Assembly: GCA_964513145.1 (NCBI GenBank)
Contig: CAZELK010000003.1
Span: 1 to 64,000 of the forward strand
Direction: 5' to 3'
DNA length: 64,000 bases
Source: Candidatus Woesearchaeota archaeon
Lineage (GTDB): Archaea > Nanobdellota > Nanobdellia > SCGC-AAA011-G17 > JACPIM01
The position numbers and the translations under genes were made by a program. The notes below the pieces were generated by a model. The model ran no database searches. It saw only the letters and a list, made by a program, of their open reading frames with translations, and was not told the origin of the DNA. Of this stretch, positions 20,158-58,958 are shown piece by piece. How positions within the stretch are numbered: the first letter of the stretch is position 1; every line of letters begins with the position of its first letter.

Positions 20158-21154
20158 ATGCAAGATTTATTGCCTTTTGAAAAAATTGAAAGAGAAGTTG
20201 TAATTAGAAAGGAAGCAGAAACAAACCCTGAATTTGGTTGCAAGCCTGAAAATAGATCGGCTGAACAATTAATTCATTATGGAATCGTGAATATAAACAA
20301 ACCTGAAGGGCCCACGAGCCATCAAATCTCGGATTATGTTCAGAAGATTTTGGGGATTAATAAATCCGGACACAGCGGAACCTTAGCGAAATAATTTTCG
20401 AGGATATCCCGGTGTGACTGGTTGCTTGCCTGTTGCTTTAGATAAAGCTACAAGGATAGTTCAAACTTTATTATCTGCCGGGAAAGAATATGTGGGAATA
20501 ATGCATTTACATAAAGAAATTCCAATTAAAGAAATTGAAACTAATTTTAAAGAATTTATAGGGAAAATAATGCAGTTGCCCCCAAGAAAAAGTGCTGTTA
20601 AAAGACAAATAAGACAAAGAGAAATTTACTATTTTAATATTTTAGAAATAAATGAACAAGACATTTTGTTTAGAGTCGGATGCCAGGCAGGAACTTACAT
20701 TAGAAAACTTACCTCTGATTTCGGGAAGAGATTAAATATTGGGGCTCATATGGCTGAATTGATAAGGACAAAAGCAGGACCCTTTAAAATTGAAGATTCT
20801 TTTACTTTACATGACTTAAAAGATGCTTTCTCCTTATATAAAAGTGAAAAAAATGAAACTGATATAAGGAAAATAATATTACCTATTGAAAAAGCAGTTG
20901 ATCATTTGAATAAAATCTGGGTTAATGACAGAACTGTTAATAATTTGTGCCATGGTTCTGATTTATTTTCCCCAGGGGTTGCAAAGTTACATAAAAACAT
21001 TGACAAAAATGAATTAGTAGCTATAATGACATTAAAGAATGAATTAATTTGTTTAGGTGAAACTGAAATTAATTTTGAAAACATAATGAAGAAAGAAAAA
21101 GGATTAATTGCTAAAACCAAAAAGGTGTTTATGGAAAGAAATACATATCAATAA
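20158..21154 (+). CDS. cbf5: H/ACA pseudouridine synthase Cbf5, interrupted by a 19-nt intron (exons 20158-20386 and 20406-21154; 325 aa spliced)
   Basis: NKPEGPTSHQ, GHSGTL|DPGVTGCLP after splicing, KEYV, QLPPRKSAVKR, GTYIRKL, PUA domain; 229+749=978 nt, in frame. Confidence 0.93.
20387..20405 (+). other. BHB mRNA intron in cbf5 (19 nt)
   Basis: GGAA-CCUU-AG|C-GAAA-UAAU-UUUC-GAGG-AU|A-UCCC; excision joins G+AU to make the catalytic Asp codon and removes an in-frame TAA. Confidence 0.9.
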
Positions 21155-21165
21155 AATTTCATCTT

Positions 21166-21681
21166 CTATCTATATTTACTTAAATCCCCAGTAAAACTAT
21201 AAGACTTTTTTTTAGCATAATTTTCTGCATCCCATAAACGTAGAGGAAAATCTTCATGCCTTGAACTTAATCCATTTAAATGCAACCATCTATGATTTAT
21301 TTCATGAGGCAATGCTGAAAGAATGTTTTCCCGTGCAGGATAGCCATTTTCTTCTCTCCATGCAACTGTTATATAATCATCATCAAAAGAATAATATCCT
21401 GCAGTAACTATGCCTTCCTGTGTTTCAAAACTTCCTATTTTGTTTGGAATAGTAACAATTAAATCGTCGTGTATATTTCCCATAAAATATGAGTGAAGAT
21501 CAACAGAATATTTATCTATAATTTCTCCAAGCTCTGTATAATCATCAACTTTTATCCAGTTTGGGGGCATTACTTTGATACCAAGATTAGTTTCAAATCT
21601 ATATGGCATTTGATCATTACATCCACTAAATAACATAAGTGCTGCACATTTAAATAAAAATTCTCTTCTTGTCTTCTTCAT
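21166..21681 (-). CDS. Putative Tat-exported lipoprotein with HEXXH motif
   Basis: TRREFL twin-arginine-like motif, FSGC lipobox, LPHEINH. Confidence 0.6.
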   Translation of the reverse strand: MKKTRREFLFKCAALMLFSGCNDQMPYRFETNLGIKVMPPNWIKVDDYTELGEIIDKYSVDLHSYFMGNIHDDLIVTIPNKIGSFETQEGIVTAGYYSFDDDYITVAWREENGYPARENILSALPHEINHRWLHLNGLSSRHEDFPLRLWDAENYAKKKSYSFTGDLSKYR

Positions 21682-22045
21682 TTTTTAATGTCCCAAAATA
21701 ATTATTTCTCGTTTGGATTGTTATCTGGATAATCTTCAAGCAATTAATTTTTTATTTAAAAATAATTTTGCTGTTTTTGTATATAATTATTTATATTGTA
21801 AGAAAATGTTTATGCAAAACATACGTTATCATCATCCTCATCCAGAATGGAATTATACAATAAGTGCTAATTAATCACTTTATTTTTAGGCAAGCCCGAA
21901 GCTAATTTTTAATTCATTATAATTTGTGCAGAAATTTTGATATTTGTGCAGGTTAAGATTAAATAAAACTCTATCAAATGACTTCTCTGGCAAATCCCAA
22001 GAAATAAAAACATTTAAAAGTAGTAATATTACTATAAATAGTTAA

Positions 22046-22231
22046 ATGACTAGAAATAGTGGAATGATTAAAAGTAGTATTATTAGTAATAAAGTTACTA
22101 TGAAAATTTCTGAGGAGATATTCTTTGAATTAATGAAATTAAAGGGCGATTTCAAAGCAAAAACCTGGGATGAATTGTTTAAAAAAATAATAAAAGAGCA
22201 TGAAGAAAAAAATAAGCAAAAAATAAGATGA
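22046..22231 (+). CDS. Small putative DNA-binding (RHH/antitoxin-like) protein
   Basis: TMKISEEIFFELMKLK...TWDELFKKII pattern; overlaps the next start (ATGA). Confidence 0.5.
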   Translation: MTRNSGMIKSSIISNKVTMKISEEIFFELMKLKGDFKAKTWDELFKKIIKEHEEKNKQKIR

Positions 22232-57303: not shown

Positions 57304-57344
57304 TTGCCCCAAACTTTGTAAAAAGTTTTGATCAAATTATTTGA
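57304..57344 (-). other. tRNA-Ala D-loop intron, 19/20 (41 nt), containing a family B repeat
   Basis: GCUCA-GUCU-GG|U-CAAA...UUUG-GGGC-AA|U-AGAGC; + strand 57311-57336 reads aaactttgtaaaaagttttgatcaaa. Confidence 0.87.
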
Positions 57345-57377
57345 CCAGACTGAGCTACGGGCCCATTTATTTAATTG

Positions 57378-57410
57378 AAATATGTAGGTTATTATGCATC
57401 TAGTAAAAAA
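57378..57410. other. 16S pre-rRNA processing stem, 3' arm (relaxed BHB)
   Basis: AAATATGTAGGT and ATCTAGTAAAAA are inverted at 58991-59022 and flank a bulged centre. Confidence 0.7.
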
Positions 57411-57413
57411 ATA

Positions 57414-58958
57414 AAGGAGGTGATCCATCCGCAGGTTCCCCTACGGATACCTTGTGACAACTTAACCCACCTTACTGAGCTTTGGCTCGATTTAATCTTT
57501 AAACTAAACCTCACCAAAACTCTGCTCGGTTGACTTGATGGGCAGTGTGTGCAAGGCACATTGACGTATTCACCGGACGTTGATGACATCCGATTACTAG
57601 GGATTCCGGCTTCATGAGGGTGAGTTACAACCCTCAATCTGAACTAAGATAAGGTTTGAGGGATTAACTTCTCCTTACGGAGTTGTATCCTATTGTCCTT
57701 ATCATTGCAGTGCGTGTGTATCCCAGGAGATTCGAGCCATACAGACCTATCGTTGCCTACACCTTCCTCCTTGTTACCAAGGCAGTCTTCATAGTGTGCA
57801 CAAACATCGAAAAGACTTGTTTGCAACTATGAATGTAGGTCTTGCTCGTTGCACGACTTAACGTGACACCTCGCGGCACGAGCTGACGACGGCCATGCAG
57901 CATCTCTGGGCCTGTTAGGTAAGACCTTCAATCTGACCTTCATTCTGCCATCGCCCCTGGTAAGATTTTCTGAGTAGAGTTAGATTAAACCGCACACTTC
58001 ACCCCTTGTAGTGCGCCCCCGCCAATTCCTTTAAGTTTCAGTCTTGCGGCCGTACTTCCCAGGCGGTGAACTTAACACCTTCGCTGCGGCACTGCATATC
58101 CCCAAAGAATATGCAACACCTAGTTCACAGAGTTTACAGCTAGGACTAATCGGGTATTTAGTGAACAAAAAATATTTCTGAAAAAATATTATTAGTATTT
58201 GCAACAAATATTTCTTCTTTTGCTGTTCATATCTAATCCGTGTTGCTCCCCTAGCTTTCGTCCCTCACTGTCAGACCCGTTCTAGATAGATGCCTTCGCC
58301 ATAGGTAGTCCTCTAAGGATTATAACATTTTACCGCTCCCCAAAGAATACTTCTATCTCTTCCCGGTCTCAAACCTAAAAGTTTCCTCTGCCCACCGTTA
58401 GATTAAGTCCAACGATTTCACAAAGGAGTTTTTAAATCAGCTACGGACGCTTTAGGCCCAATAAATATGGTCACCACTTGTGGCGCTGGGGTTACCGCGG
58501 CTGCTGGCACCAGTCTTACCCACCACTTATTCTCCGAGCTGCTTACACTCGGCAAAAGCCTACCCAGAAGGTAGGCACTTGGGATACCCTTATCACACTT
58601 TCGTGCATTGTAAAGGTTTCGCGACTGCTGCACCCCTTAGGGCTAGGACCCTTGTCTCAGTGTCCTTCTCGAGGCCAGGACTCTCATCCCCTCTACTGAT
58701 CATAGGCTTGGTGAGCCTTTACCTCACCAACTACCTAATCAGCCACCGACTCATCTTATGGCATTGCTTTTGAGAGAAAGAACGTTCCAGTATCTTTCTC
58801 TTATTTGGGTTTGTCCTCAATTTATCAAGGTTATCCCAAACCATAAGGCAGATTATCGACGTGTTATTGAGCCGTCCGCCAGGATTCCGAAGAATCCAAG
58901 ACTTGCATGTCTAAGTCGCATCCCAATAGCAGTAACCTCCTGCAGGATAAACAGGAAT
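57414..58958 (-). rRNA. rrs: Archaeal 16S rRNA with one BHB intron (1470 nt after removal)
   Basis: 5' AUUCCUGUUUAUCCUG, GUGCCAGCAGCCGCGGUAA, GCCAUGCAUGGCC-like 1050 region, 3' GGAUCACCUCCU. Confidence 0.98.
58156..58230 (-). other. 16S BHB intron, about E. coli 793/794 (75 nt)
   Basis: CGGA-UUAG-AU|A-UGAACA...UGUUCA-CUAA-AU|A-CCCG; spliced GGAUUAGAUACCCG. Confidence 0.92.

Follow-up and report, generated by a model that had tools for sequence, protein, structure and literature searches.

In published work, the splicing of archaeal messenger RNA (mRNA) comprises the cbf5 message of a small crenarchaeal group and one Haloferax transcript (PMC10485636), and it is tied to a heterotetrameric splicing endonuclease. 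The cbf5 intron is described for some Crenarchaeota only, which a 2023 review calls a small group of related archaea (PMC10485636); in Desulfurococcales and Sulfolobales it separates the first base of the catalytic Asp codon from the second (Watanabe 2002; Yoshinari 2006; Yokobori 2009, PMC2738675), and each 3-nucleotide (nt) bulge of its bulge-helix-bulge (BHB) motif is cut between the second and third base (PMC2738675). From Thermoproteales, several BHB introns at conserved ribosomal RNA (rRNA) sites are known (Jay and Inskeep 2015, PMC4496867). Nawrocki, Jones and Eddy (2018, PMC6125680) described rRNA genes of Woesearchaeota, Pacearchaeota and Micrarchaeota in which BHB introns occur together with group I introns. 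For tRNAs of Thermoproteales and DPANN archaea, genes with several introns, introns outside position 37/38 and variants of the splicing endonuclease EndA have been described (Kaneta 2018, PMC5829648). We report here on ten inserts in a 64,000-nt stretch of DNA from a Candidatus Woesearchaeota archaeon (contig CAZELK010000003.1, positions 1 to 64,000 of the forward strand; hereafter the window), which interrupt the cbf5 gene, a tRNA-Ala(UGC) gene and the 16S and 23S rRNA genes.

We conclude, with a probability of about 0.88, that the ten inserts are archaeal BHB introns which would be cut by the endonuclease EndA and joined by the ligase RtcB, that they are best read as accumulated selfish or neutral elements and not as a control device, and that they probably have at least three origins. 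The intron kind itself is known; the ten-intron set is new as a dense case that includes an mRNA, in a lineage whose EndA is simple. The host is a mesophilic groundwater Woesearchaeota (DPANN) represented by a metagenome-assembled genome (MAG; here G000) of 978 kb in 18 contigs, with a completeness rating of 98.8%; the GC content of the window is 28%. The rRNA operon, tRNA-Ala(UGC) and cbf5 are each single-copy in this genome. Relatives were retrieved with the Cbf5 protein, and nearly all of them are labelled Woesearchaeota or Nanoarchaeota MAGs; G001 and G003 belong to the same genus as the host, and the other comparison genomes include G005, G009, G012, G013, G018, G019 and G020. The 23S and 16S genes were aligned by MAFFT to normal-length, intron-less genes (G019, G005, G018 and others), and intron boundaries were set by homology and BHB geometry together.

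The geometric test asked whether, with the splice sites fixed where homology demands them, four pairing bases lie immediately 5' of each of the two bulges, G-U pairs being allowed. All ten introns show four of four central pairs and 3-nt bulges at both cut sites, whereas two random positions in the operon meet this criterion 2.4% of the time (0.024 per site). The intron-side helix measures 4-12 bp in nine of the ten; in the T-loop intron of the tRNA it is 1 bp, followed by a 6-bp hairpin. On the exon side, the helix is clear for both tRNA introns, 23S intron 5 and cbf5. The central (C) helix of 23S intron 4 changes in a compensatory manner among relatives, which speaks for selection on the structure (ATAT/ATAT in G000, CTAT/GTAG in G020, GTAT/ATAC in G012), and minimum-energy folds reproduce the motif for cbf5 and for 23S intron 3. 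Open stretches within the ten introns reach at most 40 codons, and none of the introns holds a LAGLIDADG open reading frame (ORF). The initial annotation had counted one mRNA, two tRNA, one 16S and six 23S introns of 19-186 nt, had ascribed to each a 4-bp helix and two 3-nt bulges that give the conserved spliced sequence, and had judged them too short for a homing endonuclease; all three statements held, and the spliced products match those of relatives. Artefacts of metagenome assembly or binning, which a MAG in 18 contigs might invite, are scarcely credible as an explanation: homologous introns stand at the same sites in the separately assembled G001, G009, G012 and G020, and the geometry is exact.

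The cbf5 gene lies on the plus strand. Exon 1 (20160..20386, Pfam DKCLD) ends with the G that opens the catalytic Asp codon, exon 2 spans 20406..21154 (Pfam TruB_N, TruB_C_2 and PUA), and between them stands a BHB intron of 19 nt (20387..20405) with the C helix CCTT/GAGG, bulges AG-C and AT-A (the hyphen marks the cut), an inner helix GAAA/TTTC and a TAAT loop. Unspliced, the reading frame stops two codons into the insert. The insertion point (tta g, intron, at ccc) separates bases 1 and 2 of the Asp codon, and removal of the intron restores GHSGTLDPGVTG, which is translated as GHSGTL-D-PGVTG. Among the Woesearchaeota and other DPANN cbf5 genes compared, 7 of 79 carry an intron, all at this same nucleotide, with lengths of 12-26 nt in the relatives. 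In a Cbf5 tree of these 79 genes, confined to Woesearchaeota and other DPANN, the well-supported branches force at least five changes in intron presence. The C helix covaries, with CCTT opposite GAGG or AAGG and CTCT opposite AGAG or GGAG.

The site is the nucleotide interrupted in Crenarchaeota, and the DPANN introns share with the crenarchaeal ones the BHB type, the cut after the second bulge base, the short length and a patchy distribution with inferred losses. They differ in being smaller, in having a canonical C helix and bulges and not relaxed ones, and in occurring here beside a single alpha4-like EndA, whereas the crenarchaeal case has been linked to the heterotetrameric enzyme. Our literature search found no published report of a DPANN cbf5 intron, nor of DPANN BHB introns in protein-coding genes. 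The conserved Gly-Thr-Leu-Asp-Pro codons are able to pair with each other (GGNA with UCCN), and the rare GGG codon for the Gly before Thr-Leu-Asp, which adds a G-C pair and so strengthens the outer helix, occurs in six of six intron-bearing alleles of relatives as against 7 of 72 intron-less ones (the lineages being partly non-independent). The spliced message would resemble an anticodon stem with a 7-nt loop, a likeness that may explain why this site recurs.

The tRNA-Ala(UGC) gene in the 16S-23S spacer (57218..57364, minus strand) is made of three exons, which after splicing form a regular 74-nt tRNA with G3:U70 kept, matching the intact spacer tRNA of G013. The D-loop intron (41 nt, 57304..57344, minus strand) stands between G19 and U20, with the C helix GTCT/GGGC, the D-stem as its outer helix and an inner helix of 5 bp; the T-loop intron (32 nt, 57232..57263, minus strand) stands at about 59/60, with the C helix TTCA/TGAA, the T-stem as its outer helix and its 6-bp inner hairpin set off by a small internal loop. 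The gene was missed by both ARAGORN and Rfam and was spotted by reading a GC-rich island in the spacer. Among nine spacer operons compared, eight hold the T-loop intron, with differing lengths (G000 and seven of eight relatives; loci L004, L013, L014, L015, L018, L019 and L020), the D-loop intron is found in G000 and G001 only, and the spacer tRNA-Ala of three relatives has an anticodon-loop intron. Both introns of the host gene contain a AAACTTTT...AAAAGTTT hairpin, which also occurs elsewhere in the spacer (57134-57151), in a tRNA intron and the spacer of G001, and in one 16S and one 23S intron of G009 (L009 and L010 being the rRNA loci of G001 and G009). In a looser form, the pattern has 36 copies in the host genome as against 9-17 for control palindromes, an enrichment of roughly two- to threefold.

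As in the tRNAs of Kaneta 2018 (PMC5829648), the introns lie outside 37/38, the EndA is alpha4-like and the tRNAs are largely invisible to standard finders. For the genome as a whole, ARAGORN counted 8 tRNAs without and 15 with its intron mode, the Rfam tRNA model gave about 18-21, and most of the tRNAs detected were 90-140 nt long. Since counts this low and genes this long come from a genome rated 98.8% complete, most of its tRNA genes must be interrupted.

The remaining seven introns lie in the sole rRNA operon of the genome, on the minus strand, one in 16S and six in 23S. The 16S gene spans 57415..58958 (Rfam RF01959, 1354 bits) and the 23S gene 53636..57056 (RF02540, 2247 bits), the latter shrinking from 3421 nt unspliced to 2911 nt after splicing. 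The 16S intron (75 nt, 58156..58230) is inserted between GGATTAGAT and ACCC, near E. coli 793/794, with the C helix TTAG/CTAA and an inner helix of 7 bp; its removal leaves the junction found in five intron-less relatives, and G001 has a homologue of 84 nt. In 23S, again by approximate E. coli position, intron 1 (32 nt, 55080..55111) interrupts helix 69 at 1912/1913, with the C helix GGAA/TTCT and an inner helix of 6 bp, and its termini recur in a 132-nt allele of G001 and a 597-nt allele of G009. Intron 2 (139 nt, 54915..55053; 1938/1939) has the C helix GCGA/TCGT, an inner helix of 12 bp and a 120-nt homologue in G001. Intron 3 (37 nt, 54374..54410; 2449/2450) sits next to A2451, with the C helix GGGG/CCCT, and its minimum-energy fold shows that helix together with the 5' bulge. 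Intron 4 (32 nt, 54270..54301; 2521/2522) has the C helix ATAT/ATAT noted above and an inner helix of 8 bp. Intron 5 (186 nt, 54071..54256; 2534/2535) combines the C helix GCAG/CTGT with an outer helix of 5-6 bp and, after one mismatch, an inner helix of 12 bp, and has homologues in G001, G012, G020 and G009. Intron 6 (84 nt, 53933..54016; 2588/2589) has the C helix GTTA/TAAC, an inner helix of 5 bp and homologues in G001 (84 nt) and G009 (93 nt). Each of the seven spliced rRNA junctions was compared with those of three to five intron-less relatives; all align gap-free and show the same or nearly the same sequence.

Like the Thermoproteales set of Jay and Inskeep (PMC4496867), this operon carries several BHB introns at conserved rRNA sites; unlike it, the host is a mesophilic woesearchaeon at 28% GC, six of the seven rRNA introns are in 23S, and no ORF is kept in G000. 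The cases of Nawrocki and colleagues (PMC6125680) come from the same phylum-level group, and relatives of the host likewise have group I introns and LAGLIDADG ORFs in the same 23S region, whereas G000 itself has BHB introns only and none at the group I sites 1923, 1931 and 2593. These relatives bear on the proposal that we are dealing with self-splicing group I or II introns, or with degenerate remnants still able to splice themselves. Group I introns do occur in the 23S of G012 (77 bits) and G009 (70 bits), located 7 nt upstream of the intron 2 site, after AAGGU, where relatives also carry LAGLIDADG ORFs; that offset, and lengths of 19-186 nt that are too short for a group I core, leave the proposal with a negligible likelihood. 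No group I (RF00028) match was found in the window at the Rfam gathering threshold, at which the rRNAs were the sole hits; a looser E-value scan spanned 1-53700, with the rRNA intron region outside it.

Two 23S introns show further features. At its 3' end, intron 6 forms a T-arm-like hairpin (GAGGTTCAATTCCTC) that is retained in G001 with small changes. In intron 2, the segment GCCATTCAT (55010-55018, minus strand) is complementary to the exon segment ATGAATGGC (54879-54887), 27 nt past the 3' splice site; this 9-nt complementarity is real, and G001 has kept the intron segment. A box C/D small RNA in intron 2 was considered on account of a UGAUGA upstream of that segment and two CUGA motifs; G001 has the CUGA region deleted and the C box altered, and this doubtful candidate was not adopted.

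The initial annotation had forecast further hidden mRNA introns elsewhere in the genome, and three came to light. The rtcB gene on contig C6 carries two, one of 33 nt (L026 1574-1606, C helix GGGG/CCCT) and one of 11 nt (L026 1676-1686, C helix GAGG/CCTT, without an inner helix), as well as an intein that begins after GFDIN. Splicing yields ...DGHWG-YGFPIGG... and ...ISPGG-IGFDINC, which match the uninterrupted RtcB of the same-genus G003. The third, of 29 nt, lies in rnhB (C10:8243-8271, minus strand; C helix CGGT/ACCG) and splits the catalytic GIDEAGR-GPIIGP of RNase HII. We also tried a genome-wide scan on structure alone for BHB motifs that join two open frames. The raw hits numbered 117,938 and the frame-joining ones 1,629; a stricter filter reduced these to 245, among which the introns already known in cbf5 and rtcB were absent. 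At 28% GC, such a scan does not discriminate.

We then consider the splicing enzymes, which the initial annotation had proposed to look up. EndA is encoded by a single gene (C7:33752-34318, 188 aa), with PF02778 at the N-terminus and PF01974 as the catalytic domain, and RtcB likewise by one, the interrupted gene on C6 (about 75.2-78.2 kb); an absence of endA is thus excluded. The best PDB matches of the EndA are 1a79 and 3iey_A. It aligns gap-free with the homotetrameric-type EndA of M. jannaschii (1a79) and lacks the six-residue insert of the N. equitans catalytic subunit, and on this alignment we call it alpha4-like. No second EndA-like gene was found by six-frame Pfam searches and phmmer over all ORFs of the genome; the best additional candidates for a beta subunit (E = 0.07 and 0.014) had no Pfam support and were rejected. 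With a single EndA-like gene, the genome appears to be without a heterotetrameric (alpha-beta)2 EndA. By its gap-free alignment and the missing insert, the EndA of the host departs from the account of PMC5829648, which ties the disruption of DPANN tRNAs to an extra "L3" loop in EndA.

In the mechanism suggested by these features, EndA would cut each intron after transcription, behind the second base of both 3-nt bulges, and RtcB would join the exons and probably circularise the introns. The 16S and 23S rRNAs, tRNA-Ala(UGC) and the cbf5 message would be functional, as judged from their sequences, only once spliced. Because these targets are single-copy and EndA and RtcB are each encoded by a single gene, all of them must pass through one enzyme pair, and their dependence on that pair can soundly be inferred from the gene content. 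Furthermore, since rtcB is the sole ligase gene and itself carries BHB introns, the making of new ligase seems to need ligase that already exists.

Several observations weigh against reading the inserts as spliced BHB introns. The EndA subunit type of this genome is described in the literature as strict (PMC5829648), yet the inner helix of the T-loop intron is imperfect and the 11-nt rtcB intron has none. In strict register, the exon-side helix is 0-1 bp for 23S introns 1 to 3; it is 0-2 bp for introns 1 to 4 and 6. Minimum-energy folds are modestly better than those of shuffled sequences (z -1.0 to -3.2), and the central helix does not appear in all of them, so that the weight of the argument rests on the exact register and on the comparison with relatives. 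Finally, no convincing canonical BHB was found in the pre-rRNA processing stems by a strict scan, cofolding or a motif-anchored comparison across relatives. The stems had been claimed by the initial annotation, and both are real. The 5' strand of the 16S stem (58989..59022, minus strand) pairs with its 3' strand (57378..57411, minus strand) in two helices, 12 bp and 14 bp long, that flank an 8x8 loop (59022-59011 with 57389-57378, and 59002-58989 with 57411-57398), and that loop offers just three of four central pairs. The 23S stem joins 57056..57070 to 53620..53634 (both minus strand) by 15 bp and extends helix 1.

Such points bear on a reading in which the rRNA inserts stay unspliced, either as expansion segments or as pieces cut without ligation, leaving fragmented rRNA like that made by bacterial intervening sequences, while cbf5 would be a pseudogene or frameshifted. 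Splicing is argued here from sequence, and three of the 23S introns have no clear exon-side helix, both of which leave some room for this reading. The inserts, however, interrupt functional sequence that is single-stranded and conserved universally (in helix 69, next to A2451 and at GGATTAGAT-ACCC), the BHB register is exact in ten of ten with compensatory changes in the central helix, and in cbf5 the codon for the catalytic Asp is broken up and a stop follows after two codons, in the sole copy of the gene. We regard unspliced inserts as very improbable, and BHB splicing as the better account.

The initial annotation had gone further and proposed a splicing gate, in which one endonuclease/ligase pair controls the translation apparatus. 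The requirement for one enzyme pair stands; as to a control device, nothing seen here points to regulation. For a purpose-built gate, the cell would tune EndA and RtcB to set the output of ribosomes, tRNA and Cbf5 jointly. The targets are all single-copy and essential, and with two BHB introns in rtcB itself a feedback loop is conceivable. Against this, each intron is variably present among close relatives: G001 is without 23S intron 4, L031 without the cbf5 intron, and the rtcB of G003 and the tRNA-Ala of G013 are intact. Intron interiors are also poorly conserved and drift between relatives, and one allele bears a homing endonuclease, all of which is typical of elements that are mobile or neutral. 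Since individual introns are missing in close relatives, neutral or selfish elements fit better than a regulatory design, and we consider a purpose-built gate improbable.

As selfish or neutral elements, the introns may have arisen in at least three ways. First, the rRNA introns would be ORF-less remnants of homing-endonuclease introns, as shown for 23S intron 3. At that site, the BHB intron of G001 measures 606 nt, has homologous termini and encodes a LAGLIDADG protein of 181 aa, and the 37-nt intron of the host looks like the closing stem of a G001-type intron whose interior is gone. Adjoining hairpin mini-introns were possibly co-converted. Introns 4 and 5 are 13 nt apart and introns 1 and 2 are 26 nt apart, and short hairpin introns near longer ones would fit the co-conversion homing published for Pyrobaculum (PMC4496867). 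The classes are those of the Thermoproteales, namely hairpins below 50 nt, ORF-less remnants and LAGLIDADG alleles at the same locus, with close pairs compatible with co-conversion there too. Second, the tRNA introns may have been built around the recurring AAACTTTT...AAAAGTTT hairpin module. Third, the cbf5 intron may have been repeatedly gained or lost at one nucleotide, with the GTLDP codons supplying the outer helix. Descent from dispersed repeats was tried and rejected, as blastn-short of all ten introns against the genome matched only the introns themselves.

The initial annotation had also supposed that the introns spread by a route that needs no intron-encoded endonuclease. This fails for 23S intron 3, given the LAGLIDADG allele of G001; for the rRNA introns in general, there is no need to suppose that an endonuclease was never involved. 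For the cbf5 intron, with its at least five changes, and for the tRNA introns, an endonuclease-free route is plausible. That BHB mini-introns are still spreading in Woesearchaeota at the RNA level without a homing endonuclease is a separate and more doubtful proposition, which we hold to be unlikely. A candidate route would be reverse splicing by EndA and RtcB into hairpins resembling anticodon stem-loops, followed by copying back into DNA. If true, it would explain why an intron was gained repeatedly at one cbf5 nucleotide, both in Crenarchaeota and across several DPANN lineages, why introns of different genes have a hairpin module in common, and why introns also reached rtcB, whose ligase is made only with pre-existing ligase.

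Two neighbouring or distant genes are recorded here as separate observations. Directly downstream of 23S, a 212-aa ORF (52894-53532, minus strand) has Pfam matches to bacterial sigma-70 regions 1.2, 2 and 4, which is odd in an archaeon. On contig C1, upstream of 213507 (minus strand), elongation factor 2 (EF-2) is encoded in an open frame of 887 aa whose match begins at model position 30, so that the 29 N-terminal model positions are missing from the match; an intein-like junction (...FISN-TTFSD) stands just upstream. From this start and that junction, the N-terminal part with the P-loop must have its coding sequence further up.

Archaeal mRNA splicing has been treated as a near-curiosity, and here introns in cbf5, rtcB and rnhB are seen in a DPANN archaeon whose EndA is plain and alpha4-like. 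One consequence is that intron-bearing genes are mis-called as frameshifted or split; another is that tRNAs, including the spacer tRNA-Ala, are overlooked by standard finders. Within 16S, the intron breaks up the conserved GGATTAGATACCC site, which we take to be one used by common amplicon primers. The same-site cbf5 introns, together with the pair of 23S intron 3 alleles with and without a homing endonuclease, provide material for testing how BHB introns are born and decay.

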